From the IMG/VR virus record IMGVR_UViG_3300044619_001118, positions 1 through 64,000 of that record: a stretch of DNA of 64,000 bases; one strand, written 5' to 3'. Shown here piece by piece: positions 3,562 to 55,766 of this stretch (the first letter of the stretch is position 1; each line of letters opens with the position of its first letter). This DNA comes from a virus. The position numbers and the translations under genes were made by a program. Under the pieces are notes generated by a model, which saw nothing but the letters and a program-made list of their open reading frames with translations, did no database searches and was not told the origin of the DNA.

Positions 3562-6500
3562 ATGATATACAAGAAGAGAAATAAAAAAAATCTAATCAAC
3601 ATAAATTGTAGATTTATTGAACTTGAAAAAAACTCACCGAAGTTTTTTAATATTAGTTTCATGCCAGAACAATTTACTGCTGGTAAAAATCTATTTAAGT
3701 TTAGACCGATTAAATCTCGTTTTTCTAAAAAAGACCCAATACAAATAGAAGTTTTGGATTTTAATGGAAATCCAATATATCATGAAGTTTTGGATTATAA
3801 GGAAAGCGATGGTTCTTTAGTTGTTGCAATTTATGTGTATGAAGATACTCCTGCCGGAAATTGTAGTATAACAATGATTGGTACATCAACTGTTGATGAA
3901 AACCTAAAACAATTACCGAATCTAGAGTTAACATCGAATAACTTAAAATACATCCATGAGTTATACGTTGACCCAAAGAAAAGAAACGATACAGAAATAT
4001 TATACATAAAAGAACCTAAATTTTCTGTAAAAGAACGGAAATTTTCTATCGTTGAAGAACAATTCGCAGGACAAAAGATAGTATCTATGGGTGGAATTGG
4101 AACGTATTCCTTTACATCCGATACTCCAAAATTTATTTCAAATGGTAGTGCTTTTTTAAAAGAATATCAAAATGGTATAATCAAATTTAATTCGCTGTCC
4201 AGTCAGTATTCTCCAGCTGTAAATTTTGAAACAAGTAGTTTTTCGTACACTGCGAGTATAATAGAAGTAAGGTCTCCGTTTCAAATGCAACTCTCCGAAC
4301 CTGCGGAGATTTATGGTCTGAAGAGTGAATCCCAAATCCTGAAAACAATTTACACTCAGCCATATGAAGTTACTTTTTCTTTCAATCCAAGTAAAAGGAA
4401 TATAACTCAAAACGTAAAATCATACGCAGAAATCGATATAGATGGAATTGACCCATCGGCTGGCTCGGTAGACCGTATTAAAGTTTTCTATAAGAGTACA
4501 TTTAAACCAAAATCTGAATACGAACTAGTATATGATGATGTTGTAACTCCAAAAAACATTTTGGTTGATACTGGTTCAAAGTTAATTGAATATCCAATTG
4601 GAATATTTGATGGAAGCAATACCCTATCATCTGCGGGAATTCCATCTAATAATACAATAAACTCATCGGATTACTGGAATATTGAATTAATAAACTCTGC
4701 ACCATCTGCATCAAAATTGGTTGGTAACTCGTATCTATTTGATATGATGCAAGTTTTACCGACTCAGGTAATGTCAGGTTCTTCTGAAATTATCTTAGTA
4801 CAAAATTCAAATGTTGCAATACCACTTGTTAAAGATACAGATTATCGTGTTAAATTTGACTATTATATTGGGAATAGTAGTTTAGACGAAAGAGGTCCAA
4901 AAATAGAAGTTTATGCGTCTGGTAGTTCCTTTGTAAACACTAATGATATTGGTAAATTTGTTGGTAGTGTTCCAACGGGAAGTAAAGCAAATTCTATAAA
5001 ACTCGATTATGAGATGAAGTTGCCCGTTAATTCAAACGGTAGTGGTATTTTAAAATTTGTATTACGAGCTGGTTGTGGTATATCAAATATCAGAATAGTT
5101 GAAGATATAGATTTTGGATTCACACAAAACAGAACAAAATTATATGTACCGATAAAACAAGACCACAAATTAGAATATTTAGATTTCAAAGTTCAATTCT
5201 TCAATTATACTTTGAAAGAATCTAATATGCAACCGGTTGTGTATGATACCATGTTCAACGGTGGTAATCATTACATTTACGGTGACGATAATATCATAAC
5301 TGGTTCTACGGCAATATCACCATATACATCCAGTGGTATTCAACTATATGGCAACGTTACAGGTTCATATTCTGGCTCTGCTGTTCAAAGCTGGGGATAT
5401 GGTGGTAAAGAAAAAGCAATAGCTAATAGAGATACCGCATCAAATTTTGGATTTGCATTAACCAAAAATAATCCATATGGTATTCCAAATTATGGAGACA
5501 ATACGGTTCAAATGATAAATGAGTGTGGTTCTGTTTTTGATTTTAGAACAACACCCCCATCATTTACAATGCACGCCGTTGGTAAAAATACGAACTTTAC
5601 ATTAGGAATAAGTGGTTCCGATGATTCTAATTTTGGATACGGTGGAACAAGTGGCTCTTGCATAAACGACGATTGTACACCTGGTGGTAATTCATATATA
5701 AGATTTGATGGATGTAATATTATAATTTCGAATGCCAGAGATGCAAATGGTGTATTGTATATTGCTGGTGCGAGTGGAACTGGTGGAACACCGGGGACAC
5801 CTGGTACATCCGGTACATCGGGTACTTCTGGTGTAAACGGAACATCTGGTACATCCGGTGTAAATGGTACATCGGGGACATCTGGTGTAAATGGTACATC
5901 TGGTACTTCGGGTGATTCGGGTTCTTCTGGCTCATCGGGCTCTTCTGGTTCTTCTGGCTCATCGGGTTCATCCGGGTCTTCTGGTTCATCCGGGTCTTCT
6001 GGTTCATCGGGTTCTTCTGGTTCTTCAGGTTCCTCTGGAACCTCTGGCTCATCAGGAACCTCTGGCTCATCAGGAACCTCTGGCTCATCAGGAACATCTG
6101 GTTCATCTGGAACATCTGGTTCATCTGGAACTTCCGGCTCCTCTGGAACATCGGGTTCATCGGGAACCTCTGGTACAACACCAGACCCATTGGATTGTTG
6201 TGATTGTGCCCCTGTAATTTATCAGTATATACGTTGGCAACAGTTTGGTCAACTAGGACCAAATCCATGTCCACCAGATGAAATACAACAATTTGCTGCA
6301 CCAACATTTCCATCCGCAACTGCACCAAGTGCCAGTGTAAGTGGTAGTAGTAATTTATTCACCGGTTCTATGTATTTTAATACCACATCTGGTTCAATTT
6401 ATGTTTGGAATGGCTCAAACTGGTTAAGTGGATTTGGAACATCTGGTACTTCTGGAATCAATGGAACATCAGGAACATCGGGAACAAATGGTTCATCGGG

Positions 6501-7215
6501 TACTTCTGGAACAAGTGGAACATCGGGTACTTCTGGAACAGGTTTTAACTCTATAAATAATGCCGGTAATTTACGTGTTCTATTCTCCGATGGAACAACA
6601 AATGCAGCAACTGCATCAACTTATCTAACTGTAACCCAATCAAATGATACATCCACAATTGCAGTCGGTATAGGAACAACGAACACATCAAATGAAGGTA
6701 ATTTGTTCTTAGGTGCAAGGAGTATAAATGAAGGAGGTCAATTATTCCTTCAAAGAGCAACTGGCTATACTTCGGCATCTATGATAGACAATTATCAAAA
6801 CAGATTTCGAATTCTTCGTGGTAATGATACATCCAGTAATGCGGAAGATTTTTCTATAAATCATACCACGGGTCAAGTTTCATTTACAAGGTATAATTCA
6901 ACAAGTTCATTTACAGGTACACCTATTGATTTTCTTTCATTTGATTCTGGCGGTAATATATTAACATCACCGTCAAAATTTACACAAATAATTGGAAACA
7001 CCGTACAGAGTTCATTTAACATAACCCACAGTTTAGGTGATGCCAATATTCAAGTGAACATACGAAGTAATTCAACTGGTCAAATATATTACCCATCTGC
7101 AACGGCAGGTGCACCGCCACAATACACTGCTACTGTTGTAGATTCAAATACCGTCACAATTGCATTTTCATCGGCACCATCTGCAAATCAATTCATTGTT
7201 GTTATTAGTAAATGA
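3562..7215 (+). CDS. Large virion structural / fibre-like protein with Gly-X-Ser triplet tracts
   Basis: 1217 aa; beta-rich N-terminal ~730 aa, (GTS/GSS)n tracts at ~5767-6177 and ~6436-6540, fibre-like C-terminus (FNITHSLG...VDSNTVTIAFSSAP). Confidence 0.65.
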   Translation: MIYKKRNKKNLININCRFIELEKNSPKFFNISFMPEQFTAGKNLFKFRPIKSRFSKKDPIQIEVLDFNGNPIYHEVLDYKESDGSLVVAIYVYEDTPAGNCSITMIGTSTVDENLKQLPNLELTSNNLKYIHELYVDPKKRNDTEILYIKEPKFSVKERKFSIVEEQFAGQKIVSMGGIGTYSFTSDTPKFISNGSAFLKEYQNGIIKFNSLSSQYSPAVNFETSSFSYTASIIEVRSPFQMQLSEPAEIYGLKSESQILKTIYTQPYEVTFSFNPSKRNITQNVKSYAEIDIDGIDPSAGSVDRIKVFYKSTFKPKSEYELVYDDVVTPKNILVDTGSKLIEYPIGIFDGSNTLSSAGIPSNNTINSSDYWNIELINSAPSASKLVGNSYLFDMMQVLPTQVMSGSSEIILVQNSNVAIPLVKDTDYRVKFDYYIGNSSLDERGPKIEVYASGSSFVNTNDIGKFVGSVPTGSKANSIKLDYEMKLPVNSNGSGILKFVLRAGCGISNIRIVEDIDFGFTQNRTKLYVPIKQDHKLEYLDFKVQFFNYTLKESNMQPVVYDTMFNGGNHYIYGDDNIITGSTAISPYTSSGIQLYGNVTGSYSGSAVQSWGYGGKEKAIANRDTASNFGFALTKNNPYGIPNYGDNTVQMINECGSVFDFRTTPPSFTMHAVGKNTNFTLGISGSDDSNFGYGGTSGSCINDDCTPGGNSYIRFDGCNIIISNARDANGVLYIAGASGTGGTPGTPGTSGTSGTSGVNGTSGTSGVNGTSGTSGVNGTSGTSGDSGSSGSSGSSGSSGSSGSSGSSGSSGSSGSSGSSGSSGSSGTSGSSGTSGSSGTSGSSGTSGSSGTSGSSGTSGSSGTSGSSGTSGTTPDPLDCCDCAPVIYQYIRWQQFGQLGPNPCPPDEIQQFAAPTFPSATAPSASVSGSSNLFTGSMYFNTTSGSIYVWNGSNWLSGFGTSGTSGINGTSGTSGTNGSSGTSGTSGTSGTSGTGFNSINNAGNLRVLFSDGTTNAATASTYLTVTQSNDTSTIAVGIGTTNTSNEGNLFLGARSINEGGQLFLQRATGYTSASMIDNYQNRFRILRGNDTSSNAEDFSINHTTGQVSFTRYNSTSSFTGTPIDFLSFDSGGNILTSPSKFTQIIGNTVQSSFNITHSLGDANIQVNIRSNSTGQIYYPSATAGAPPQYTATVVDSNTVTIAFSSAPSANQFIVVISK

Positions 7216-7257
7216 TATTTATAGACATATGATTTATACCAAAATGAGAGAGAATAA

Positions 7258-9345
7258 TTGCCACCAATCCAAAGAGATTTAACCAACCTGTACATATCTG
7301 AGTCGTATTACAGGTTGATGCAGACAGACCCGATAGACGATATTACCCTACTTGATGGTACGGGTTCTCTTGTTACATATTTGGCAATATCTGGTACTCT
7401 CGATGCCTTTTATTTAAAAGGTGATGGTTCACAAATAAGAAACATATCTGGTGCGGCACTCCCACAAGGAACTGTTACATCTTCGGCTCAAACAATACAA
7501 AATCTTGCCGGAACAAATATCATATCTAGTTCGGCACAACGTTCTGTTCTTGGACTTGCAACAACCGATTCACCAACATTTGCAAACTTAACTCTCACCG
7601 GTAATTTAACTGCACAACAGTTGATTATTTCATCTTCTGTTATTGTTGTTACTCAGTCATATAGTAGTGGTTCTACTATATTCGGTAACACGATGGATGA
7701 CTTCCATCAGTTTACTGGCTCTGTTTATATTACAAGTTCATTAACAACAACTGGTCCTGGTATATTTCAAGGAAAGAGTCCTTCTTCGGAATACATTTTA
7801 ACATTGAAGGGATACAATACTGGTTCACAACTTGCAATCGGTGTTAGTGGTGATGGAAATTACGGAATACAAAACTCTGTATTAAATTCTAACGGTAGTG
7901 ATTATCGTAAATATACACTTACCGCAAATGGAATTTACTTTAATATTATAAGTGGTGCCTTTCAACAAGAAAACGCCTTTAGGATAAATGGCGATGGTAC
8001 AACTCGTATTCACGAAATATGGACTGACAATTACATCAATGCTCCTGGTATTTTAAATGATACCACTAATGGTTTTGCAGAACTTGCTTGGCAAAATGGA
8101 ACCACATATTTTGCAAGAGTGATTGCTCAGGCAGATGGTACTCGTATAGAAACAGGAAATAGTAGTAGTGGTTACACATGGTTATTTGATGAAACAGGTT
8201 CATTAACATTACCTTTGTCCGGTAGTTATTCTATCCTAAATCCAGACCAAACTCCGTGGAGTGCATCGTATGCATTGAAGGCATTGGATGTTATAAATTC
8301 TGGTGCATTTGCAAAAACAGGTTCAAATATATTTTCTGGTAGTCAAATAGTAAACGGAAACGTTTTTATTGATGGTACATTGACTGCAAAAACATATGTT
8401 GTTTCTTCTTCTATCGTTAATATAGAAACGATGGGTGTTTCTGGTTCAACTATTTTTGGTGATACCGCAAATGACACGCATCAATTTACAGGTAGTTTGT
8501 TGGTAAATGGTGCTGCATCTTCAAGTTTAGGGTTTTATGGAAATCTAACAGGAACGGCAACATCTGCATCACAGGCATTAACATCTTCCTATATTGACCC
8601 ACTTTATATATCTGCATCTGTTGCATATTATGGATTTGCTGGTGCAACGAGCGTCCAATGGGATAATATCCTATTCAAACCTACAAACATAATTTCTAGC
8701 TCAGGTCAACGAAGTGTTCTTGGACTTGGTGAGAATGATTCACCACGTTTCTCAACAATTTACGGAACAAATGGAAATTTTGATGGGAATCTTGTTGTTG
8801 GCGGGACTATAACTGCAAGAACATACATTATTTCATCATCGGTGGTAAATTATCAAACATTGAATGTATCTGGGTCAACAAAATTTGGTGACAGTTCAGA
8901 TGACGTACACCAATTCACTGGTTCAATTTACACGAATGGTTCAGTAACATCAACTTCGTTCACAGGTTCTCTTGAAGGTTCATCTTCATATGCTCTAACT
9001 GCATCTTATGCTTTAAATGCAGGTGGTTCAACGATAAATACTGGTTCATTTGCAACAACTGCGTCCAATACATTCTTTGGAAACCAAACTATAAACGGTA
9101 ATATTGTAATAACTGGAAGTTTAACTGCACAAGAATATATAGTGTCATCATCTGTTCTGTATTTGACGGCATCATTCTCTTCTGGTTCCACGATGTTTGG
9201 TAATTCATTGGATGATACCCACAGATTTACAGGGTCTCTTTATGTTACTGGTGCATTGGTTATACCAACTGTTCAAACATTATCCGCAACAGCTGACGTT
9301 GGTACTATTGTAATTAACAGTAATAATTTGTATATTTACTTCTGA
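7258..9345 (+). CDS. Tail fibre-like repeat protein
   Basis: Ser/Thr/Gly-rich; four copies of G.LTA..(Y)I(I/V)SSS......SGST.FG...(D/N)D.H.FTGS; TTG start. Confidence 0.65.
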   Translation: MPPIQRDLTNLYISESYYRLMQTDPIDDITLLDGTGSLVTYLAISGTLDAFYLKGDGSQIRNISGAALPQGTVTSSAQTIQNLAGTNIISSSAQRSVLGLATTDSPTFANLTLTGNLTAQQLIISSSVIVVTQSYSSGSTIFGNTMDDFHQFTGSVYITSSLTTTGPGIFQGKSPSSEYILTLKGYNTGSQLAIGVSGDGNYGIQNSVLNSNGSDYRKYTLTANGIYFNIISGAFQQENAFRINGDGTTRIHEIWTDNYINAPGILNDTTNGFAELAWQNGTTYFARVIAQADGTRIETGNSSSGYTWLFDETGSLTLPLSGSYSILNPDQTPWSASYALKALDVINSGAFAKTGSNIFSGSQIVNGNVFIDGTLTAKTYVVSSSIVNIETMGVSGSTIFGDTANDTHQFTGSLLVNGAASSSLGFYGNLTGTATSASQALTSSYIDPLYISASVAYYGFAGATSVQWDNILFKPTNIISSSGQRSVLGLGENDSPRFSTIYGTNGNFDGNLVVGGTITARTYIISSSVVNYQTLNVSGSTKFGDSSDDVHQFTGSIYTNGSVTSTSFTGSLEGSSSYALTASYALNAGGSTINTGSFATTASNTFFGNQTINGNIVITGSLTAQEYIVSSSVLYLTASFSSGSTMFGNSLDDTHRFTGSLYVTGALVIPTVQTLSATADVGTIVINSNNLYIYF
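9308..9338 (+). promoter_or_regulatory. Possible Bacteroidota-type housekeeping promoter for the multidomain glycosyltransferase
   Basis: TTG(9308-10)-N20-TATATTTA resembles the -33 TTG / -7 TAnnTTTG consensus. Confidence 0.35.
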
Positions 9346-9378
9346 TAATCCGTAAAAAATAGTTTCGTTAAAGGTTTT

Positions 9379-28572: not shown

Positions 28573-29598
28573 ATGAAAAACCGAGCAGATAAAATAGTAC
28601 CGGGTCAAATGCACCCACTTGATATTGCACTCCAAGCCAGCATTAACGGTCATCCTGAAATTAGTGAAGATATTTTACGTTCTCAACCACAAGATGACCT
28701 TCGAGTTCTTTTCAATCTTGGTTGGCACGAAATGAGACATGGTAATCTCAAAAAGGCAATGGAACACTTTAACTACGGTCGGTATATCGACGTATTTGGA
28801 CTACCACCACTTCCAGGAAAAATTTGGAAGGATGAACCACTCGAAGGAAAAACACTTCTTTTCAGATGTGAAGGTGGTTATGGAGACCAAATTCTTAACT
28901 TTCGTTTTGCAAAACATTTTGTAGAAAAAGGTGCAAGAGTTCTTGTCTCTTGTGCACCAGAATTAAAAGAAATATTTTCTCGTCACGGATATATTTGTAT
29001 TGACAATGAAGTTGCAATGGGTGCTCATTACGATTATTGGGTTCCAGCTATGTCAGCGGCATTTATCTTGGATATGGAATACGAAGACCTTGACGGTTCT
29101 CCATTTCTAAAACCAAAAGAACCAAGAACACTTTTCGCAAAGAAAGGAACTTTAAAGGTTGGTGTTCGTTGGTCTGGTAGTCCTGACTTTGAAGATGAAC
29201 AACATCGTAGATTTGACCCAAATCTTATGATTGACCTTCACGATATTCCAAATACAACATTCTATTCACTTCAACGTGATGAAAATCTTGTTGATGGTTT
29301 GCCATTTGGTGATATGAGAGAACAAATGAAATCATGGGAAGATACTGCAAACATCATGGCAGATTGTGACATTATCATTAGTTCTTGTACCGCAACTGCA
29401 CACCTTGCCGCGGCAATGGGTAAACCAACTTGGGTTCTAACTCCTATTATGCCTTACTATACTTGGGCAGTTCCTGGTGATGGTTCAAGGTGGTATGATT
29501 CGGTAAAGTTGTATCGTCAAGTAAAATATGGTGAATGGGATGTTCCATTCCAAAAGATTCGTGAAGACCTAACAAAGTTAGCGGAAAACCACAAATGA
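28573..29598 (+). CDS. TPR-like + GT9-like (GT-B) glycosyltransferase
   Basis: N-terminal helix pair VLFNLGW; EGGYGDQI.NFRF, KVGVRWSGSP, FYSLQ, WEDTA..MA.CD.IISSCTATAHLAAAMGKPTW, WYDSVKLYRQ. Confidence 0.8.
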   Translation: MKNRADKIVPGQMHPLDIALQASINGHPEISEDILRSQPQDDLRVLFNLGWHEMRHGNLKKAMEHFNYGRYIDVFGLPPLPGKIWKDEPLEGKTLLFRCEGGYGDQILNFRFAKHFVEKGARVLVSCAPELKEIFSRHGYICIDNEVAMGAHYDYWVPAMSAAFILDMEYEDLDGSPFLKPKEPRTLFAKKGTLKVGVRWSGSPDFEDEQHRRFDPNLMIDLHDIPNTTFYSLQRDENLVDGLPFGDMREQMKSWEDTANIMADCDIIISSCTATAHLAAAMGKPTWVLTPIMPYYTWAVPGDGSRWYDSVKLYRQVKYGEWDVPFQKIREDLTKLAENHK

Positions 29599-30368
29599 AA
29601 TTAGATGTAATTTTACGAACTCATGATAAACGAGAAATACACATTTCAAAATCACTTCGTTATTGTGGTGTCAATAAAACGACGGTAGTAAAAAAATGTG
29701 TAAAGTCTCTTATAGAATCGTGTAATAATTCAGAACACGATATAACCTATTGGTGGTATGATGACCACTCTTCTGAAGAAACAATACAAGAATTACACGA
29801 ATTTTTTAGTAAGTCAAAACACCCATACAACTTTATTCCACTGGAAGAAGAAGGTTGGCGGTCAAGTGGTTTAGCTCAATTTGAACGTGGTAGAGATTCT
29901 GATGCTGATTTAGTTTACTTTGTAGAAGATGATTATCTTCATTATCCATCCGCAATCGATGAGATGGTTGATGCTTATACTACGTTCAAGAAAAATTTGG
30001 GTAAAGAAATTTCAATCCATCCATTTGATGACCCAGATAATTACCTTCCGGTTTGGATTGAACCTTGCCGTATTGTTTACGGAAAAAATCGTCATTGGAG
30101 AACAAATCTACATACAACATTTACATTTCTCTGTAATCCAGAATTGGTTCGTGCAAATTGGCACATCTTCTATACCATGGCAACTGAGTATGGTACTGTT
30201 TGGGGTGAGATGAATTACGTCAACGAATCAACGATGGTCAATAAACTGTGGAGAGATGACGTAACTTTGTTTACACCGATTCCGTCAGTAGCTTTACACA
30301 TGGCATATGAAACACAGAAAGACCCTTATTTGGATTGGAAAGAACTTTGGGATAGGTTTGAAATATGA
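29595..30368 (+). CDS. GT-A fold (GT2-like) glycosyltransferase
   Basis: YDDHS and LVYFVEDDYLH (DxD-like) motifs; ATGA coupled to neighbours. Confidence 0.7.
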   Translation: MKLDVILRTHDKREIHISKSLRYCGVNKTTVVKKCVKSLIESCNNSEHDITYWWYDDHSSEETIQELHEFFSKSKHPYNFIPLEEEGWRSSGLAQFERGRDSDADLVYFVEDDYLHYPSAIDEMVDAYTTFKKNLGKEISIHPFDDPDNYLPVWIEPCRIVYGKNRHWRTNLHTTFTFLCNPELVRANWHIFYTMATEYGTVWGEMNYVNESTMVNKLWRDDVTLFTPIPSVALHMAYETQKDPYLDWKELWDRFEI

Positions 30369-30976
30369 ATAAAAGAGACGATTTAAAATATGACTATGAT
30401 TGGTTTAGTAAGAATTTAGCAGAAATTCTTTTTTCGGTAAAACCAACAATAAAAGAAATTAAAAATCCAAAAATACTTGAAATCGGTGGATTTGAAGGAC
30501 GGTCTACTAGATGGTTTATCGAAAACTTTCTAAACGATGGCGGAGAATTGCATTGTATTGATACATGGGAAGGTAGTTTGGAACACGATGAAATGGACAT
30601 GGATTTCTCCAGTATCTACGATGTGTTTTCTCACAACCTTCGAGAATATATTGATGACGGAACTTGTATAGTTCATCGTGGTATGTCAAAAGATATTTTA
30701 CCAAAACTTTTATCAGAAGGACATCAATTTGATTTTATCTATGTTGACGGAAGTCACCTTGCATCGGATGTTATTATTGATGGAGTTCTTTCTTATCTAT
30801 TATTAAAAACGGGTGGTATTCTTGCTTTTGACGATTATATGTATGGGTACACGGATAAAAGACCGTATGATATACCACACCATGCAATAAACTTCTTTGA
30901 TTCTGCATTTAGAGACAGAGGAAGAATTGAACTTCTCGGTTTAAATTTAATGGCAACTTATAAAAAGTTAGAATAA
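30365..30976 (+). CDS. Class I SAM-dependent methyltransferase (Methyltransf_24-like)
   Basis: ILEIGGFEGRST, CIDTWEGS, FDFIYVDGSH, LKTGGILAFDDY. Confidence 0.85.
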   Translation: MNKRDDLKYDYDWFSKNLAEILFSVKPTIKEIKNPKILEIGGFEGRSTRWFIENFLNDGGELHCIDTWEGSLEHDEMDMDFSSIYDVFSHNLREYIDDGTCIVHRGMSKDILPKLLSEGHQFDFIYVDGSHLASDVIIDGVLSYLLLKTGGILAFDDYMYGYTDKRPYDIPHHAINFFDSAFRDRGRIELLGLNLMATYKKLE

Positions 30977-31020
30977 CATCATACCATCATATTTATATTT
31001 ATTAGTAGAATGGAGTAAAT

Positions 31021-31470
31021 ATGAGATACGTGTATGTCCAAGACGAACAAGTAATAGAAGGGCCGGTAATGTTACCAATAAATTGGAATAACATTTCCAA
31101 TTTTAATGTATTAGATAACATTACTCTTAAATCATATGGGTGGTATCCACACAGATTTTTAGAGATACCATTGAACGATGATGAAGTGTATGATGGTAGT
31201 TATTATGTTATAGAAGAAAATGAAGTCGTTGAGTATCAAAGAAAACGCCAAAAGACACAGGAAGAAATCCAAAGTGAAATTAATGGTAGATGGGATAACA
31301 TTAGGTCACGGAGAAATATATTACTCGGAGAATCTGATTGGACACAACTTGCAGATGTTTCATTGTCAGATGAAAAAAAAGAAGAATGGAAATTGTATCG
31401 CCAATCACTAAGAGACATAACAAATTTCGATAGTCCAGACCACGTAATATGGCCAAATAAGCCGGAGTAA
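31021..31470 (+). CDS. Tail fibre assembly chaperone
   Basis: C-terminal W..IR..RN.LL.ESDWTQL.D....W..YRQ.LRDIT.....V.WP..P pattern. Confidence 0.8.
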   Translation: MRYVYVQDEQVIEGPVMLPINWNNISNFNVLDNITLKSYGWYPHRFLEIPLNDDEVYDGSYYVIEENEVVEYQRKRQKTQEEIQSEINGRWDNIRSRRNILLGESDWTQLADVSLSDEKKEEWKLYRQSLRDITNFDSPDHVIWPNKPE

Positions 31471-31473
31471 TGA

Positions 31474-33738
31474 ATGCAAAAACTTGTTGAAGAAATAGTA
31501 AACGAACTTAAACTGCAACTTTTTAATGAGGAAGATAAAGGTGATAAAACTATCATTGCAATTTATCCTGGCCGTTTTCAACCGATGGGTTCCCATCATA
31601 AAGCTGCTTATGACTGGTTGGCTAAACAATTCGGTGAAAAGAATACTTACATTGTTACTTCCGATAAAACAGACCCTCAAAGGTCTCCTTTTTCTTTTGC
31701 AGAAAAGAAGAAAATCATAAATAAACACGGTATTAAAAACGTTGTAAAAGTAGTTAGTCCTTATAATCCACAAGAATTACTTCAAAAATTTGACCCAAAG
31801 AAAACGGTTATCGTTTACATGATTGGTGAAAAAGATTCTGGTAGATTATCTGGATATAAACGTCTTATGAAGTATAATAAGACAACTGCAATTCCGTATA
31901 AAGATATAAGTAATCCATATGCGTACTATGTTTATGCGCCTCATATTTCAATGAATATACCAAGTTTTGGTGAAATGTCAGGCACAAATATTCGTAAGGC
32001 ACTTAGTGATAGAGCTGCAAAATTATCTGAGTTAAAATCGAGATTTAAATCGATTATGGGTTGGTTTGATGCAGACATCTTCAATATGGTAATTGGTAAG
32101 ATGAATACAAATCGTGGTAATTTGGAAGAATCTGTTGGAAACTGGATTACTAACTTACATAATATGTCTGCGGAACAATCAAAAAAATTCTTGAGTATCC
32201 TGAAGAAAGAATACAATGATACAAAAGATTTGATTCCTATCTTCAGAAAATATATGAGAACAAAGTCTCTTACTCAAAAAGAACGTGAGACAATAGTTAC
32301 TCAATTAAGAGATATTGCAAAAATTATGGGACTTGGTGCGATTGCAATTGCACCGATACCCGGTAGTGAATTTCTGATACCACCAATTATTTCTCTCGGT
32401 AGAAAGTATGGTGTAAACTTACTACCTGAAAACGAAGAAAAGAAATCGGAATCTCTTCCAATTGTAAAGAGAGAATTTTGGGACAAGGTGTTCGAAGAAG
32501 TTTTGAACGAAGAAACACTCATTGCAGAAGGTGGAGTTGCAGGTCACATGACTCACCCATTTGAAGATATGGGTCTTACATTTGGTGATATGAAAGAAAT
32601 GTTCCGACTTGGATTATCTGGTGAAATAACAACAACAGGTGCACCATCTGAAAAGTTAGATGGACAAAATCTGTTTGTTACGTTCAAGAAAGGTAAACTA
32701 TATGCTGCAAGAAATAAGGGTGACATTAAATCCGGTGGTATGGATTACAAATCTATAAAGACAAAATTTGCAGGACGTGGAGAAATAGAACGAGCCTTCA
32801 CTTATGCATTCAGAGACTTAGAACAAGCAATCCAAAATCTAACTGAAAAACAACAACAAAAGATTTTCAAAAACGGAACTGCGTGGATGAATCTTGAAGT
32901 TATGTACCCTGAAAGTGCAAACGTTATAAACTATGACGGTGCATACATTGTTTTTCACGGAAGTTCTTTGTATAATAAAGAAGGTATAAAAGTAGAAGAT
33001 TATCCAGAGTATGCGAATATTCTTGCTGGTATGATTAAACAAGTAAATGCCGATACACAAAAAACATTCAGTATTTCCAAACCAAAGAAACTTACGATTG
33101 CAAAATCAAAGAATTTCAAACAAAAACTTCAATATTTTACAGACCAACTTACTAAACTTCAAAATGAAATGAATTGCAAAGATTCAGATACTCTTGGTAT
33201 GTGGCATCAACGTTGGTGGGAAAATTATATTAAGACTAACTCAAAGAGATTGAATGTTAAAGTTGATGAAAAAACAATGCAAGGTCTTGTTAAAAGATGG
33301 GCTTTTTATGATAAGTCATTTGTTTTGAATACTGCAAATATTCCAAATGCAGAACTTTTAGGTTGGGCAAAGGAAGTTGATAAAACAAAACTTCAAGAAC
33401 AACAAAAGAAAAACATCAAACCATTCGAACTTCTTGTTTTGAAATTTGGTGCTGAAGTTCTTAAAAATGTTAGTGATGTAATGGCACTAAACCCAGAAAA
33501 AACAACACAAAAGATACGGAAGGACGTTGAAGACGCAATCCAAACACTTTCAAATTCAACAGACGTGAATGATTTGAAAGTTTTGAAAACACAACTTTCT
33601 CGTATTAAAGCTGCTGGTGGAATGAATTCAATCGTCCCACTCGAAGGTATCGTATTTAACTTTAATGGTAAGTCATATAAGTTAACAGGTGCATTTGCAC
33701 CAGTAAATCAATTACTTGGTTATTTTAAATTTGGTTGA
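31474..33738 (+). CDS. Fusion of an HxGH-like (cytidyltransferase/NMNAT-fold) nucleotidyltransferase and a ligase-like (KxDG) nucleotidyltransferase domain
   Basis: N-terminal IYPGRFQPMGSHH, PFSFAEK, GEKD, MSGTNIR; C-terminal HMTHPFED, EKLDGQN, ARNK, NLEV, EGIVF, YKL. Confidence 0.6.
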   Translation: MQKLVEEIVNELKLQLFNEEDKGDKTIIAIYPGRFQPMGSHHKAAYDWLAKQFGEKNTYIVTSDKTDPQRSPFSFAEKKKIINKHGIKNVVKVVSPYNPQELLQKFDPKKTVIVYMIGEKDSGRLSGYKRLMKYNKTTAIPYKDISNPYAYYVYAPHISMNIPSFGEMSGTNIRKALSDRAAKLSELKSRFKSIMGWFDADIFNMVIGKMNTNRGNLEESVGNWITNLHNMSAEQSKKFLSILKKEYNDTKDLIPIFRKYMRTKSLTQKERETIVTQLRDIAKIMGLGAIAIAPIPGSEFLIPPIISLGRKYGVNLLPENEEKKSESLPIVKREFWDKVFEEVLNEETLIAEGGVAGHMTHPFEDMGLTFGDMKEMFRLGLSGEITTTGAPSEKLDGQNLFVTFKKGKLYAARNKGDIKSGGMDYKSIKTKFAGRGEIERAFTYAFRDLEQAIQNLTEKQQQKIFKNGTAWMNLEVMYPESANVINYDGAYIVFHGSSLYNKEGIKVEDYPEYANILAGMIKQVNADTQKTFSISKPKKLTIAKSKNFKQKLQYFTDQLTKLQNEMNCKDSDTLGMWHQRWWENYIKTNSKRLNVKVDEKTMQGLVKRWAFYDKSFVLNTANIPNAELLGWAKEVDKTKLQEQQKKNIKPFELLVLKFGAEVLKNVSDVMALNPEKTTQKIRKDVEDAIQTLSNSTDVNDLKVLKTQLSRIKAAGGMNSIVPLEGIVFNFNGKSYKLTGAFAPVNQLLGYFKFG

Positions 33739-46381: not shown

Positions 46382-48016
46382 ATGAGTATTCAACAACTTT
46401 TAGGTGCTTCTGCGAATCCGCACAAGCGTCTTATTGAAGAAAACCGTGGCACAGTTAAGAAGTGGGAAAAGACAGGACTTCTTGACGGCATCGGTAGCGA
46501 CTATGAAAAGAACTCGATTGCAGTTCTTCTCGAAAACCAAGCAAAGCAACTTATCGACGAATCATCACGTACAGGTACATCAGCAGGTTCAGAAGAATGG
46601 GCTGGCGTTGCTCTCCCACTCGTTCGTCGTATTTTCTCTGAAATCGCAGCAAAGGATTTCGTTTCTGTTCAACCTATGAACCTTCCTTCAGGTCTCGTGT
46701 TCTTCCTTGACTTCAAGTACGGAACAGCACAACCTGGTTTCACAACTGGTGCTGGTAAGGATTCACAAACTGACTCTGTATTCGGTGTAACTGGTAAAGA
46801 AGCTAAGGGTGTTGACCCATCTGGTGGTCTTTACGGTGCAGGTCGATTTGGTTATTCTATCAACGAAGCTCAAGTTGTTCTCTCAAAGGCAACTGCACTT
46901 TCTGCAACAGAATTCGTAACAGGTTCGGTAACACACGCAACACCAACACTTTGGCAGAATGACACACGTTTCCAAAACACATACTCAGCATCACTTGCTG
47001 CTGGAAACATCATGTCTATCACAGTTTCTTCTGGGTCTCTCTTAAACGAAGATGTTGAAGCAATTCGTGCATTCAAGGTTTCTGGTTCAACAATTCTTGG
47101 TTACTTCCCACAGTTCACATACGCAAATGCAAATGATTCACAAATCACATTTATCGTATCGGCTTCTGCTGCTCCTGCAACAGTTGGTGTTGCTTACGAA
47201 AAGCAACCAACATCAACAACTCGTGGTGACTTCGAAGACACAACAGGTGCAGACGTAAACATTCCAGAAATCAACCTTGAACTTCGTTCTGAGTCAATCG
47301 TGGCTAAGACACGCAAGTTGAAGGCTGTATGGACACCGGAATTCGCACAAGACTTGAACGCTTACCACTCAATCGATGCTGAAGCAGAATTGACATCGAT
47401 GCTTTCTGAGTACATTTCACAAGAAATTGACCTCGAAATCCTCGATATGCTTATCAAGAACGCTCAGACAACAGAAAGATGGTCAGCTCGTATCGGTCGC
47501 ACATATGATGGTAACACAAACACATTCGGTGACTACGCAACAAACCAAGCTGCAGCTTCGGCATTCAACCAACAAACATGGTTCCAAACACTTGGTACCA
47601 AGATTCAAAAGGTATCGAATGCTATCCACCAGAAGACACTTCGCGGTGGTGCTAACTTCCTCGTTTGTTCACCACAAGTTGCTACAATCCTTGAATCAAT
47701 TCCTGGATATGCAGTTGACGGTGAAGGTATGAAGTTTGCCATGGGTGTTCAGAAGGTTGGTCAACTTAACGGTCGTATCACAGTTTACAAGAACCCATAT
47801 ATGCTCGAAAATCAAATCCTTGTTGGTTTCCGTGGTAGCCAGTTCCTTGAAACAGGTGCGGTATATGCTCCTTACATCCCACTCGTGATGACACCGCTGG
47901 TCTATGACCCAACGAACTTCACACCACGTAAGGGTGTAATGACTCGCTACGCTAAGAAGATTGTCCGTCCAGAATTCTACGGTCTCATCCAAGTAGATTC
48001 TCTCGGTGACATATAA
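46382..48016 (+). CDS. Major capsid protein (T4 gp23-like)
   Basis: LLENQ, LPLVRR, VQPM..PSGLVFFL, AKTRKLKA.WT.E.AQDL.A.HS.DAE.EL, YAPYIPL, GVMTRYA. Confidence 0.96.
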   Translation: MSIQQLLGASANPHKRLIEENRGTVKKWEKTGLLDGIGSDYEKNSIAVLLENQAKQLIDESSRTGTSAGSEEWAGVALPLVRRIFSEIAAKDFVSVQPMNLPSGLVFFLDFKYGTAQPGFTTGAGKDSQTDSVFGVTGKEAKGVDPSGGLYGAGRFGYSINEAQVVLSKATALSATEFVTGSVTHATPTLWQNDTRFQNTYSASLAAGNIMSITVSSGSLLNEDVEAIRAFKVSGSTILGYFPQFTYANANDSQITFIVSASAAPATVGVAYEKQPTSTTRGDFEDTTGADVNIPEINLELRSESIVAKTRKLKAVWTPEFAQDLNAYHSIDAEAELTSMLSEYISQEIDLEILDMLIKNAQTTERWSARIGRTYDGNTNTFGDYATNQAAASAFNQQTWFQTLGTKIQKVSNAIHQKTLRGGANFLVCSPQVATILESIPGYAVDGEGMKFAMGVQKVGQLNGRITVYKNPYMLENQILVGFRGSQFLETGAVYAPYIPLVMTPLVYDPTNFTPRKGVMTRYAKKIVRPEFYGLIQVDSLGDI

Positions 48017-50282: not shown

Positions 50283-51413
50283 ATGGTAGAAATTCCTATA
50301 TGGCCTGGTAGTTCAAGTTTCTCAACAGGTAGTACACCGTTCGGATTCTTTGATACCGATGCCACATTTCAAACCGATGCAGATAACGTCGCAGATTGGT
50401 GTGCGAAACGTCTTGGTTATCCACTTGTAGACATAGAACTTCAGGCCGGTAACTTTTATGCTTGTTTTGAAGAAGCCATATCTGAATATTCAAACCATGT
50501 AAATCAGTTTAATATCCAACAAAATATGTTGAGTATCATGGGAACACCGACCACAAATGAGTTGACCCATAGAAATATCTCAACAAACATGGGTGGTCTT
50601 GTTCAATTAGCAACTGAATATGGTTCAGAAACATTTACGAACGGTAATGTTAATTTTTATACTGCATCTATTTCAATTGCAACTGGTGTTCAACTTTATA
50701 ATCTTGATAAATTGATTCGTGATATAAAGTCACCAACTGGTTCTATTGAAATTAAACGAGTACACCATTATGCTCCACCTGCATCTATTCGTTTCTATGA
50801 CCCATACTTGGGTAATCAGGCGATGTTAGATACGTTCGGCTTCGGTGCATATTCAACAGGTGTATCATTCATGTTGATGCCTATGTATGCAGACTTACTT
50901 CGTATTCAGGCAATTGAGTTTAATGATTTGATGAGAAAGTCATCTTATGGATTTGAACTTATAAACAATCAATTAAGAATACATCCTATTCCTGTAAAAG
51001 ATTTTACACTTTGGATAGAATACATTGTAAAAGAAGAACGTGCAAATCCGTTGAAATATCCGGGTGGAACAGTATCGGATATATCAAATGCGCCATACTC
51101 AAGAATGCAATATGGTAACATCAATTCCGTTGGTCGTCAATGGATTTATCGTTACACACTTGCTCTTGTAAAGGAAAACTTGGGATATATTCGTGGTAAG
51201 TACGGAACAATTCCAATTCCAAATGGTGAAACAACTTTGAATGCGGCAGACCTATTAACTGCTGCAAGTGCAGAAAAAACACAGTTGATTGAAGAATTGA
51301 GAACAATGTTAGATACAATGACTCGTTCAAAACTTCTTGAAGCAAAACGTGCAGAGACAGAACATTTAAATGTTGCTCTGAACGGAACTCCTTTAAAGAT
51401 TTATGTGGGATAA
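50283..51413 (+). CDS. Neck / head-tail adaptor protein (gp13-like)
   Basis: RLGYPLVDIEL, W...YTLAL.KE.LG..RGKY..IP.P.GE.TLN; position before tail genes. Confidence 0.75.
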   Translation: MVEIPIWPGSSSFSTGSTPFGFFDTDATFQTDADNVADWCAKRLGYPLVDIELQAGNFYACFEEAISEYSNHVNQFNIQQNMLSIMGTPTTNELTHRNISTNMGGLVQLATEYGSETFTNGNVNFYTASISIATGVQLYNLDKLIRDIKSPTGSIEIKRVHHYAPPASIRFYDPYLGNQAMLDTFGFGAYSTGVSFMLMPMYADLLRIQAIEFNDLMRKSSYGFELINNQLRIHPIPVKDFTLWIEYIVKEERANPLKYPGGTVSDISNAPYSRMQYGNINSVGRQWIYRYTLALVKENLGYIRGKYGTIPIPNGETTLNAADLLTAASAEKTQLIEELRTMLDTMTRSKLLEAKRAETEHLNVALNGTPLKIYVG

Positions 51414-53327: not shown

Positions 53328-55766
53328 GTGGCTAATGAAAGAATTGTAAGTCCTGGTGTGTTTACGATAGAAAAGGACCTTTCATTCTTACCACAAGGTA
53401 TTGGACAAATTGGAGCTGCCCTCGTCGGACCAACGATGAAAGGCCCTGCATTTGTTCCTACTGTGGTTGAAGGGTACAACGATTTCGTAACTCAATTCGG
53501 TGGCACATATGAGCAATCATACTTGCCTTATACAGCAAAAAGTTATCTGAACAACGCCGGTAGTGCAACTATCGTTCGCGTACTAGGTTCAGGTGGATAT
53601 ACACTTAAACACCCCCTTGCACTCGTTGCAACAGGTAGTTGGGGTAAAAAGTTAATATCTGTTCTTCACCCAACATTTGTTGTTTCAAGTGATGATTCAA
53701 CATCATTGTTTGCACAATCAACATTGGGTTCTAACAATAGTGGTTCGTTTGTTCTTACAGTTTCTGGTGCTTTTGCAACAGATACATCGGCATTTACAAA
53801 CGCAATAAATGAAAACGGAATACCATACAGTGCTTCTATTAATCCAGAATCAACTGCATTCGTTGGTGACCTTTATGGATATAACCCATACGGCACACAC
53901 GCTGTTTACAACTATGTAAACTTCAAATGGCAGGCATCTGCTTCACTTGCTTCTGACGGTGCAACAAGAATATTGATTGAAACTGGTTCAGCATCATCGC
54001 CATGGGATTTCAGTGATGATTATCTCGAAGCATATACTCCGTATGTGACTTCACAAAAAGTCGGTGGATTGGCAACAAATCTCTTCCGTTTTGCAACACT
54101 TTCACACGGTATTCACGCTAACTATGAAGTTAAAGTCGGTATCGCAAACATTCGTCCAGCTGGCACAATCGCTGGTTCTGAATACGGTGACTTTGATGTT
54201 GTAATTCGTTATGTAGACCAATCAAAGGTTCCACAAACACCATTCACAACAGAAGACGATGACCTTCGTCCAAATGTAGTAGAGCAGTTCAAGGTTAACC
54301 TTGACCCTAACTCTCCAAAGTATATCTCCCGTGTTATCGGCGATAGATATATCACAGTAACATCTGAAGGTAAAGTTGTTGTAAACGGTGATTATTCGAA
54401 CAAGTCAAAGTATGTCCGTGTTGAAGTAACGGACGCAGTTAATAACGGTGGTATTTCACCAACATTGGTTCCTTTCGGATTCCGTGCACCGGTATCTCCA
54501 ATTCCAATCGGATTTACTGCACCTCCTGCGGCATCTTATGTTGCTTCTCAAACAGCTGGTGGTGCTTATAATCGTCGAGTATATTGGGGATTCAGCTATG
54601 ATTTCTCAAATACAGACAACTTCAACTACCTCCGTCCACTTCCAGTATCTGTAAATCAAACAACTGGTTCAAATGTTGACTTCTATCTTGGCGATTACAA
54701 TCAACCAGCTGGTGCAAACTTCCCAAGTTCTGCTGGCGGATATAGCTCTTCGATTGACTTAACAACAAATACTGCACTTGACACACGTAAGTTTATGATT
54801 CCGTTCCAAGGCGGATTTGATGGACACAAGCCACATCTTCAAAAGAAGACAGGTACATACATCGAAGCTGGTAACACACAAGGTTTTGATATTTCTTCAA
54901 CAGGCGCTGATGGTTATACATCATATAAGAAGGGTCTTGACGCAATATCTAACTCTGATGAATTTGACATCAACATGATTGTAACTCCTGGTGTTCTTCA
55001 CTCGTTGCACTCACCAATCACAACATACGCAAAGGATGTTTGTGAAGACCGTGGTGACGCTTTCTATGTGATGGACGGTAACGCTATCGCTGACAATATC
55101 GCAACAGCTGTTTCAACTGTTGAAGGTCTTGACACAAACTATGCGGCTACATACTATCCGTGGGTTAAGATTCTTGACTTCGATAGAAACAAGCCAATTT
55201 GGGTTCCACCGTCTGTTGTTCTTCCGGGTGTTATTGCATTCAACGACCGTGTTTCTGCTGAATGGTTCGCTCCTGCTGGTCTGAACCGTGGTGGTCTCAC
55301 AGAAGTTCTTGAAGTTAAGACACGTCTTACACACTCAGAGCGTGACACACTTTATGAAGGTCGTATCAACCCAATCGCAGTATTCCCATCAACAGGAGTA
55401 TGTGTATGGGGTCAGAAGACACTTCAAGGTCGTCCATCTGCTCTTGACCGTATCAACGTCCGTCGTCTCTTGATTGCAGCTAAGAAGTTCATCGCTTCGT
55501 CTACACGTTACCTTGTATTCGAACAAAATACAACACAAACACGTACACGATTCCTGAACATCGTAACTCCTTACTTGGAGTCGATTCAACAACGTCAAGG
55601 TTTGTATGCATTCCGTGTTATCATGGATGAGTCAAACAATACACCTGACATCATCGACCGTAACATTCTTTATGGTCAATTGTTCTTACAACCTGCGAAG
55701 ACTGCTGAATTCATCATTCTTGACTTCAACATTCAATCAACAGGTGCGGCATTCCCAGGTGCTTAA
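53328..55766 (+). CDS. Contractile tail sheath (gp18-like)
   Basis: SPGVFTIEKDLS, WFAPAGLNRG, LYEGRINPI, WGQKTL, DRINVRRL, P.KTAEFI.LDF; GTG start with GGAG. Confidence 0.95.
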   Translation: MANERIVSPGVFTIEKDLSFLPQGIGQIGAALVGPTMKGPAFVPTVVEGYNDFVTQFGGTYEQSYLPYTAKSYLNNAGSATIVRVLGSGGYTLKHPLALVATGSWGKKLISVLHPTFVVSSDDSTSLFAQSTLGSNNSGSFVLTVSGAFATDTSAFTNAINENGIPYSASINPESTAFVGDLYGYNPYGTHAVYNYVNFKWQASASLASDGATRILIETGSASSPWDFSDDYLEAYTPYVTSQKVGGLATNLFRFATLSHGIHANYEVKVGIANIRPAGTIAGSEYGDFDVVIRYVDQSKVPQTPFTTEDDDLRPNVVEQFKVNLDPNSPKYISRVIGDRYITVTSEGKVVVNGDYSNKSKYVRVEVTDAVNNGGISPTLVPFGFRAPVSPIPIGFTAPPAASYVASQTAGGAYNRRVYWGFSYDFSNTDNFNYLRPLPVSVNQTTGSNVDFYLGDYNQPAGANFPSSAGGYSSSIDLTTNTALDTRKFMIPFQGGFDGHKPHLQKKTGTYIEAGNTQGFDISSTGADGYTSYKKGLDAISNSDEFDINMIVTPGVLHSLHSPITTYAKDVCEDRGDAFYVMDGNAIADNIATAVSTVEGLDTNYAATYYPWVKILDFDRNKPIWVPPSVVLPGVIAFNDRVSAEWFAPAGLNRGGLTEVLEVKTRLTHSERDTLYEGRINPIAVFPSTGVCVWGQKTLQGRPSALDRINVRRLLIAAKKFIASSTRYLVFEQNTTQTRTRFLNIVTPYLESIQQRQGLYAFRVIMDESNNTPDIIDRNILYGQLFLQPAKTAEFIILDFNIQSTGAAFPGA

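Follow-up and report, generated by a model that had tools for sequence, protein, structure and literature searches.

What does a phage modify with an enzyme of the TibC/Aah type that is encoded in the middle of its own fibre genes? The question is raised by the stretch of DNA analysed here (hereafter the window: 64,000 nucleotides, positions 1 to 64,000 of the IMG/VR virus record IMGVR_UViG_3300044619_001118), in which open reading frame (ORF) 9379-13317 encodes a multidomain enzyme and is flanked by ORFs for Ser-rich, repetitive fibre proteins. TibC and Aah belong to the BAHTs (bacterial autotransporter heptosyltransferases), which work in the cytoplasm and O-glycosylate Ser residues of repetitive proteins whose genes adjoin their own (PMC4358343). 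A preliminary description of the window, made from the sequence alone, had proposed that the phage heavily glycosylates its own fibres. From sequence comparisons and predicted structures, we consider it reasonably probable that ORF 9379-13317 encodes a cytoplasmic assembly line for protein glycosylation, which would act on the repeat tracts of the neighbouring fibres.

Results

Identity of the C-terminal domain

The last part of the enzyme, from about position 12210, had been described as Aah/TibC-like on the grounds of the motifs LGDTIAW, KYWNNPTGW, FIGLGSGLSW and CHGC...CP...C. All four are present in the translation of ORF 9379-13317, and the proposed start agrees with the domain boundaries found here (nt 12199-13314, aa 941-1312; module 4 in Table 1). 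The assignment itself was borne out by profile and structure comparison. Module 4 scored 299.6 bits against TIGR04414 (hepto_Aah_TibC, the 'autotransporter strand-loop-strand O-heptosyltransferase' equivalog), the curated cut-off of which is 200 bits; the match spans aa 948-1307 and profile positions 11-374, and the six-frame search gave a score of 303.4 bits. The sequence of the TibC structure 4RAP matched the module with an E value of 7e-70. When the AlphaFold model of the module (predicted local distance difference test, pLDDT, of 89.5) was compared with known structures by Foldseek, it was superposed on 4RAP/4RB4 with a template modelling (TM) score of 0.88 and a root-mean-square deviation of 3.0-4.3 Å over approximately 380 columns, and the superposition took in both the N-terminal flattened beta-barrel and the atypical GT-B catalytic domain of TibC. 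The next best folds were those of the GT9 lipopolysaccharide (LPS) heptosyltransferases WaaC and WaaF, with a TM score of about 0.5. By sequence and model alike, module 4 is a true relative of the BAHT-type protein O-glycosyltransferases.

With the TibC-like domain as query, IMG/VR yielded 375 contigs encoding relatives at 48-62% identity, 80 loci of which were compared residue by residue with TibC. In TibC, D110 is the catalytic base, T226 and K230 bind the beta-phosphate, W305 contacts O4 of the heptose, and Cys339, Cys342, Cys358 and Cys370 are the iron ligands of a 1Fe-0S finger (PMC4358343). Their counterparts in the window, namely D1037, T1153 and K1157, W1228, and C1262, C1265, C1279 and C1291, are invariant in 80/80 viral relatives, and D1037 is so in 23/23 and 78/78 further relatives as well; an iron-binding role of the four cysteines is predicted by homology. 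The thumb hairpin aligns with that of TibC but is three residues shorter, and its Tyr-Met tip (Phe265/Val266 in TibC) is invariant or nearly so among 24 sequences. TibC assembles into a ring-shaped dodecamer, and the roughly 940 residues that precede module 4 in the phage protein may bear on such an assembly. As the catalytic, phosphate-binding and iron-binding residues are intact, the enzyme looks catalytically competent, and the invariance of the catalytic and iron-binding residues despite a family identity of 48-62% indicates selection for activity.

Two positions of the active site are different. R286 of TibC forms a hydrogen bond with N1 of adenine, which explains the specificity for adenosine diphosphate (ADP), and the R286A substitution abolished or largely diminished the activity, while P300 (Ser in Aah) is related to the stereoselectivity for heptose (PMC4358343). 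The former is replaced by I1209 in the window and by V, I, T, L or A in 80/80 viral relatives, the latter by G1223 in the window and by G, S or A in viral relatives; among bacterial loci whose identity to the phage domain is 38% or lower, R286 is kept in 58/58. Judging by these residues, the sugar pocket resembles that of TibC, and what may differ is the nucleotide to which the sugar is attached, in agreement with the earlier remark that the donor need not be ADP-heptose.

Repeat tracts of the neighbouring fibre proteins

The enzyme gene is part of a fibre block of five co-oriented + strand ORFs separated by intergenic gaps of 11-42 nt, which is bounded by an SbcC-like gene on one side and by a block that includes an RCC1-repeat protein on the other. 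Two of these ORFs, 3562-7215 and 14622-19613, contain five tracts of 33-351 aa with a total of 777 residues, close to the roughly 800 repeat residues that had been estimated for the flanking structural proteins. The tracts had been taken for Ser repeats; Ser-rich they are, but they are better read as strict collagen-like Gly-X-Y triplets without proline: Gly occupies every third position without interruption, Thr or Ser takes the X position, and the Y residue is Ser in approximately 242 of 259 triplets (~93%). Ser and Thr account for 85-100% of the X and Y positions, with no more than two prolines per tract, and support for the helix from proline or charged residues was not found. Pfam Collagen (PF01391) matched both proteins (E values of 2e-20 for ORF 3562-7215 and 3.4e-82 for ORF 14622-19613), PHROG puts both into tail-fibre families, and neither Pfam nor PHROG revealed an autotransporter domain among the neighbours of the enzyme.

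The ends of the tracts fall into two kinds. After the first tract of ORF 3562-7215 there is a Cys-rich stretch, PDPLDCCDCAP...NPCPP (6181-6270, aa 874-903), and each of the remaining four tracts is followed by a conserved module, G(T/A)GF(N/D)(T/S)I(N/S)N...RVL.SDGTTNAA(T/S)A. The stretch and the module are probably two different caps serving trimerisation or registration.

The other two neighbours of the enzyme gene, ORFs 7258-9345 and 13357-14610, matched no Pfam or PHROG family. The former consists of repeated modules of the SGST.FG...DD.H.FTGS type, and its homologues adjoin TibC-like genes in many viral loci, including that of Microcystis phage Mel-JY01. Outside the tracts, the tripeptide [ST][GA]S reaches a density of 1.7-3.5 per 100 aa in the four proteins of the fibre block (3.3 in ORF 7258-9345), vs 0.8-0.9 in proteins 46382-48016, 50283-51413 and 53328-55766 of the head/tail modules and about zero in most others of the window. 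These tripeptides may be further acceptor sites, or mere Ser-rich composition.

Co-occurrence of the domain and the tracts in viruses

The vicinity of TibC-like domains and proline-free tracts is not peculiar to the window. Proline-free tracts (70-99% Ser/Thr) lie within 10 kb of the domain in 40 of the 80 viral loci; after dereplication at 90% identity, a tract was found within 5 kb in 29/50 loci and within 300 bp in 15/50. In the opposite direction, contigs were picked by a degenerate DNA pattern of eight Gly-(Ser/Thr)-(Ser/Thr) triplets; among 72 searchable tract-bearing viral contigs, 25 encode the domain (6/10 of those at least 90% complete) vs 0 of 45 control contigs with proline-type Gly-X-Y tracts (0/8 of the complete ones), a difference with a Fisher p value of 9e-7. 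Both counts bear out the co-occurrence that the preliminary description had expected to see across phage genomes. Among the 31 contigs in which no tract lies near the domain, six, including the sole complete genome, have tracts elsewhere, and most others are fragments rated 3-30% complete.

The carriers of the domain do not represent one lineage, since their terminase identities diverge or fail to match, giving at least three terminase lineages: the large terminase of the window is 54-63% identical to those of some carriers and 30-35% identical to those of others, and four carriers of 66-548 kb, including complete genomes of 66, 69 and 548 kb, gave no match to it. Within the terminase lineage of the window, the enzyme and the tracts are both present in the window contig, Mel-JY01 and the contigs G006, G126 and G142; the complete relatives Flavobacterium phage immuto and LR756508 showed no TibC match and no tract, even with a pattern of four triplets.

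Mel-JY01 (PP395634) is the only cultured phage of the GenBank set that has the enzyme, encoded by its ORF 4750-8430, which is annotated as 'methyltransferase FkbM' and is 52% identical over 85% of the protein. As the strict pattern found nothing in this genome, it was considered as a counter-example and then rejected as such: nt 39-2200 of the + strand encode long Gly-Ser/Thr tracts, broken by Arg and Asp and located 2.5 kb upstream of the enzyme gene. That these tracts escaped detection means that the strict pattern undercounts. For the same DNA (nt 39-2298), GenBank has a minus-strand 'hypothetical protein' (739-2298) of PEVP/LVP repeats, and the plus strand reads as long Gly-Ser/Thr-Ser tracts (GSSGTSGTRGTSGSSGTDG...). 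We are almost certain that the plus strand carries the true gene, which would encode a collagen-like fibre and begin with the first bases of the record.

Bacterial counterparts

The search was extended to bacterial assemblies with one genome per species. Classical BAHTs, in which R286 is kept, had such tracts nearby in 5/49 dereplicated loci, vs 14/18 loci with a tract-bearing gene nearby for a bacterial clade that lacks R286 and shares 42-51% identity with its phage counterparts; the distance to the tract-bearing gene is no more than 300 bp in 12 of 20 loci of this R286-less subtype. Overall, the partners of the subtype are secreted proteins or lipoproteins of 105-330 aa. In Methylobacter luteus IMV-B-3098 (L345, 8920-11122), the first gene of the pair encodes 287 aa, comprising a signal peptide and (GTA/GTS)n tracts, and the second, at 9824-11122, encodes a TibC-like enzyme of 432 aa; the pair is not prophage-borne, given that it is surrounded by queA, mfd, glcF-like, miaB and phoH genes. 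The partner in other Proteobacteria is a lipoprotein of 105-240 aa, in which the lipobox is followed by (GTS)n. Two-gene modules, in which a tract protein directly adjoins a phage-type TibC-like enzyme in a housekeeping neighbourhood, were observed in L345, L346, L352, L355 and L366; with them, methanotrophs that can be cultivated would have a candidate glycoprotein system of bacterial origin.

The strongest argument for the tract itself being the likely acceptor is that it is the sole feature the bacterial partners share with the phage fibres. A co-evolution of R286 loss with tract adjacency was also considered, and no statistical claim is made for it, because the tree provides a single independent contrast.

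Further modules and the donor sugar

As indicated by sequence matches and structure models, three transferase-type modules are combined with a methyltransferase in one polypeptide. The fused GT4 and methyltransferase that had been recognised earlier were both found by Pfam; a third, GT-A-like transferase module had been overlooked. Module 1 matched Glycos_transf_1 (5.5e-10) and Glyco_trans_1_4 (3.8e-10) in Pfam, as well as BshA (5D00; E value of 1.7e-4). For module 2, Pfam and PDB profile searches gave no match, and the fold search alone resolved it: the AlphaFold model (pLDDT of 86) was similar to many GT-A enzymes with a Foldseek probability of 1.0 and TM scores of 0.4-0.5, the Atlas lead was WavE (0.90), and the Asp of an NYDY motif (D125 of the domain alignment) is invariant across 18 homologues. 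Module 3 matched Methyltransf_23 (3e-10) and Methyltransf_11 (4.9e-6) and is 42-47% identical to methyltransferases that adjoin glycosyltransferases in phages S-CBS4 and phiPsal1. BLAST with the linker part of the same ORF (aa 830-940) showed that the forms of ~900 aa in other phages have it too. The translation of ORF 9379-13317 gives no hint of a signal peptide or of a membrane segment.

The company of the TibC-like domain varies among phages. It may stand alone (~383 aa) or be fused to GT4 or GT2, to a GT-A-like module and a methyltransferase, to a C-terminal FkbM methyltransferase, or to GT8, GT25 and GT4 together. The last arrangement is that of L026 7187-11791 (IMGVR_UViG_3300033073_001332), a 1535-aa protein comprising four transferases (GT8, GT25, GT4 and TibC-like), whose gene adjoins one Gly-X-Y tract of 2178 residues. 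Such varied partners around a constant, presumably initiating domain fit a stepwise building of the glycan, and with it the earlier idea that the fused modules would extend and cap it.

The donor may be other than ADP-heptose, because the adenine-contacting Arg is replaced and genes of the heptose pathway are rare. GmhA-like genes were found in 1/26 carrier phages, and rfaE kinase-like together with nucleotidyltransferase-like genes in 3/26; every score stayed under the curated cut-off, and this contig has no such gene. With such counts, phage-encoded ADP-heptose synthesis was rejected as a general feature. The genes resembling rfaE domain I (kinase) and rfaE domain II (nucleotidyltransferase) are those of G142, G006 and G037 and are adjacent in G142 (61826-62948), the kinase-like matches of G142 and G006 hold in-frame stop codons, and the GmhA-like gene belongs to a fourth record, G046. 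A minority of carriers may thus possess genes for the synthesis of a heptose nucleotide. Trp and Lys, both conserved, would fit a heptose-like or hexose sugar on some nucleotide.

Another candidate for sugar-nucleotide synthesis, the 754-aa 'cytidylyltransferase-like' gene 31474-33738, in which the resemblance is weak and lies in the N-terminus of the product, was rejected, the match to PF01467 being sub-threshold and no PDB relative being found. Its protein falls into virus-only clusters and is encoded beside the terminase in many related phages, often near TibC-like genes. Since this co-occurrence looks like lineage synteny, the gene was not counted in the system.

Genomic context

The source record is a contig of 74,283 bases with a CheckV completeness of ~44%, of which the window is the first 64 kb; the GC content of the window is ~36%. 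The virus is an uncultured T4-like lake phage. Its large terminase shares 65% identity with that of Mel-JY01 and 54% with that of Flavobacterium phage vB_FspM_immuto, vs only 30-35% for the terminases of classical T4-like cyanophages. At a distance of 10 kb downstream of the fibre block, a GT2 gene and a Methyltransf_24 gene are located directly upstream of a Phage_tail_APC tail assembly chaperone (29595-31470), and homologues of this pair occur near TibC-like genes in several related loci. The two are possible further glycan-building enzymes, their membership in the system being uncertain.

Table 1. Fibre block, modules of the enzyme and additional candidate genes in the window (positions in nucleotides)
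Feature	Position	Strand	Basis
Fibre protein, 1217 aa, two proline-poor Gly-Thr/Ser-Ser tracts, candidate acceptor	3562-7215	+	Pfam Collagen, PHROG tail-fibre families
Tracts of ORF 3562-7215	5785-6180 (132 aa), 6436-6534 (33 aa)	+	
Fibre-like protein, 695 aa, 27% Ser+Thr, without Gly-X-Y tract, possible second acceptor	7258-9345	+	Composition
Multidomain enzyme, 1312 aa	9379-13317	+	Pfam, TIGR04414, structure models
Module 1, GT4-type GT-B glycosyltransferase, aa 1-395	9379-10563	+	Pfam, PDB sequence match
Module 2, GT-A / nucleotide-diphospho-sugar-transferase fold, aa 396-645	10564-11313	+	Predicted structure
Module 3, S-adenosylmethionine (SAM)-dependent methyltransferase, aa 649-830 (Pfam: 649-760)	11323-11868	+	Pfam
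Linker domain, aa 830-940, no family matched	11866-12198	+	BLAST to other loci
Module 4, predicted TibC/Aah-type (BAHT) protein O-glycosyltransferase domain, aa 941-1312	12199-13317	+	TIGR04414, 4RAP, fold
Ser/Thr-rich (34%) protein, 417 aa, without Gly-X-Y tract, part of fibre block	13357-14610	+	Composition
Fibre protein, 1663 aa, three Gly-Thr/Ser-Ser tracts, main candidate acceptor	14622-19613	+	Pfam Collagen, PHROG tail-fibre families
Tracts of ORF 14622-19613	14964-15422 (153 aa), 17226-17549 (108 aa), 17913-18965 (351 aa)	+	
GT2 glycosyltransferase	29595-30368	+	Pfam
Methyltransf_24 methyltransferase	30365-30976	+	Pfam

Discussion

Mechanism and possible benefit

A mechanism may be proposed in which the TibC/Aah-type domain would put the first sugar on the hydroxyls of Ser, and perhaps Thr, in the proline-free Gly-Thr/Ser-Ser tracts while the fibres are being synthesised inside the infected cell; this sugar would be lengthened by the GT4 and GT-A-like modules, and the SAM-dependent methyltransferase would methylate it. 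The transfer of sugar, the residues that receive it, the order in which the modules act and the identity of the donor are what we infer here. As for the benefit to the phage, two collagen-like proteins offer an analogy. The GPT repeats of BclA from Bacillus anthracis carry an O-linked oligosaccharide with a methylated terminal sugar, which is built by several transferases. The cuticle collagen of Riftia pachyptila is poor in hydroxyproline but rich in glycosylated threonine, to which its stability is linked (PMC11766948). Because of this analogy, stabilisation and solubility of a proline-free triple helix would be the most likely benefit, and shielding from proteases is possible as a second one; the preliminary description had also named shielding from grazers and adhesion as possible roles. 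In a broader and much more tentative version, a distinct and widespread BAHT subfamily of hundreds of aquatic phages (66 to >700 kb) and some Proteobacteria might have switched both acceptor and nucleotide-sugar donor, the latter switch being marked by the lost adenine-binding Arg, with dense O-glycosylation enabling stable and soluble triple helices that lack proline. The result would be a collagen that depends on glycans and is made in the bacterial cytoplasm, and thereby a new class of heavily glycosylated phage fibres; we regard this as possible, yet doubtful.

Several observations weigh against glycosylation of the tracts. All support comes from comparative genomics and not from observation of a glycan, and the known BAHT acceptors are beta-helical repeats of autotransporters rather than Gly-X-Y tracts (PMC4358343). 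About half of the viral TibC-like loci, mostly on small fragments, have no tract within 10 kb, and no tract was found by the strict pattern in G132, a carrier that is 85% complete. The relation between R286 loss and the tracts amounts to essentially one clade-level split, that is, one independent contrast on the tree. The replacement of R286 is itself a difficulty, given what R286A did to the activity of TibC, and genes of the heptose pathway are mostly missing from the 26 carrier records and entirely so from this contig.

Other acceptors and other roles

The acceptors might instead be the Ser-rich, non-collagen SGS/TGS loops of ORFs 7258-9345 and 13357-14610 and of the non-tract parts of the fibres, with the Gly-X-Y tracts travelling along. 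Ser residues in short loops of beta-structured repeats are the known targets of BAHTs, as in the strand-loop-strand repeats modified by TibC (PMC4358343), the tripeptide [ST][GA]S is enriched outside the tracts in the four fibre-block proteins, and homologues of ORF 7258-9345 adjoin TibC-like genes in many loci. However, the bacterial partners share just the (GTS/GTA)n tract with the phage fibres, the co-occurrence test was keyed on the tract, and we find such acceptors unlikely in place of the tracts. Both types of acceptor could serve, so that the proposal is in part a refinement of tract glycosylation.

Modification of the host, be it of a surface protein, LPS or the envelope, for example for superinfection exclusion or for keeping progeny off debris, appears less probable still. 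The domain matches a protein-specific BAHT equivalog, with a TM score of 0.88 vs about 0.5 for WaaC, although the GT9 relatives WaaC and WaaF do act on LPS. Its gene lies inside the fibre block and not in an early or moron position, and the translation shows neither signal peptide nor membrane segment. Phage transferases that alter the surface glycans of the host are well known (a review is cited to this effect in PMC12619734), but such a role would leave the tight association with tract genes, in bacteria included, without explanation.

Finally, it is very improbable that the association is merely historical, the tracts being plain collagen-like spacers and the enzyme having another role, such as sugar modification of DNA, or none: even though phage fibres commonly have collagen-like tracts with no known modification (PHROG families), many phage transferases modify DNA (PMC12619734) and the tree is strongly clustered phylogenetically, not one of the 45 contigs with proline-type collagen tracts has the enzyme, enzyme and tract are found together again both in phages with unrelated terminases and as a pair of neighbouring genes in bacterial chromosomes, and the catalytic and iron-binding residues are invariant in a family of 48-62% identity.

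Significance

In the literature searched, we came across no account of BAHT enzymes in phages or of BAHTs paired with collagen-like proteins; the term TibC mostly matched unrelated words. If the proposed glycosylation of the tracts is correct, virion glycosylation would extend to numerous and varied aquatic phages by way of a family known until now only for the glycosylation of autotransporter adhesins. The proposal offers a testable answer to the question of how Gly-X-Y fibres without proline are stable. It would also define a new type of BAHT acceptor, (G-T/S-S)n, which is found in bacterial lipoproteins too, and it hints at a donor specificity other than ADP-heptose. Coats of glycan on the fibres would affect host recognition, the persistence of particles and the interpretation of virion proteomics, and glyco-engineering could profit from a single cytoplasmic polypeptide by which O-glycans are both placed on a simple repeat and built up further.

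Comparison with known systems

The closest counterpart in a cultured phage is ORF 4750-8430 of Mel-JY01, which shares the order GT4, GT-A-like and TibC-like with the window enzyme; unlike the latter, it gave no BLAST match to the SAM-dependent methyltransferase module. As far as the literature searched shows, glycosylation of virion proteins has been demonstrated in mycobacteriophages only. In that case, phage-encoded glycosyltransferases reportedly O-glycosylate the structural proteins of the phage itself in the cytoplasm, the work being that of Freeman et al. in 2023 (Cell Host Microbe 31:1216; cited in PMC12619734 and PMC12801897). The enzymes of the mycobacteriophage system are, however, not known to be relatives of BAHTs, and their targets are said to be the C-terminal tails of capsid and tail-tube subunits rather than collagen-like tracts of fibres.

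With the collagen of Riftia and with BclA, the phage tracts have in common the hydroxy-amino acids at the Y position of Gly-X-Y, which carry O-glycans in those proteins and are predicted to do so here. The transferases are unrelated, and those collagens contain proline, whereas X and Y in the phage tracts are almost exclusively Thr or Ser.

The enzyme is most similar to those of the TibC-TibA and Aah-AIDA-I systems of E. coli (TIGR04414; 4RAP/4RB4), with a TM score of 0.88 and approximately 35% identity. The phage enzyme retains the beta-barrel, the Asp of catalysis, Thr and Lys for phosphate binding, the Trp that contacts O4 of the heptose and the four cysteines of the iron finger; the thumb aligns and ends in a hydrophobic Tyr-Met tip. 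In both cases a cytoplasmic enzyme is encoded beside the gene for a highly repetitive, Ser-rich and surface-exposed protein. The phage enzyme differs in its candidate acceptor, proline-free Gly-X-Y fibre tracts in place of the 19-residue beta-helix repeats of autotransporters, and in its active site, where R286 is replaced by I, V, T, L or A throughout the phage clade, P300 is replaced by G, S or A, and the thumb is shorter by three residues. It is also virus-borne, and as many as three further modules, transferases or methyltransferases, are joined to the domain in one chain.

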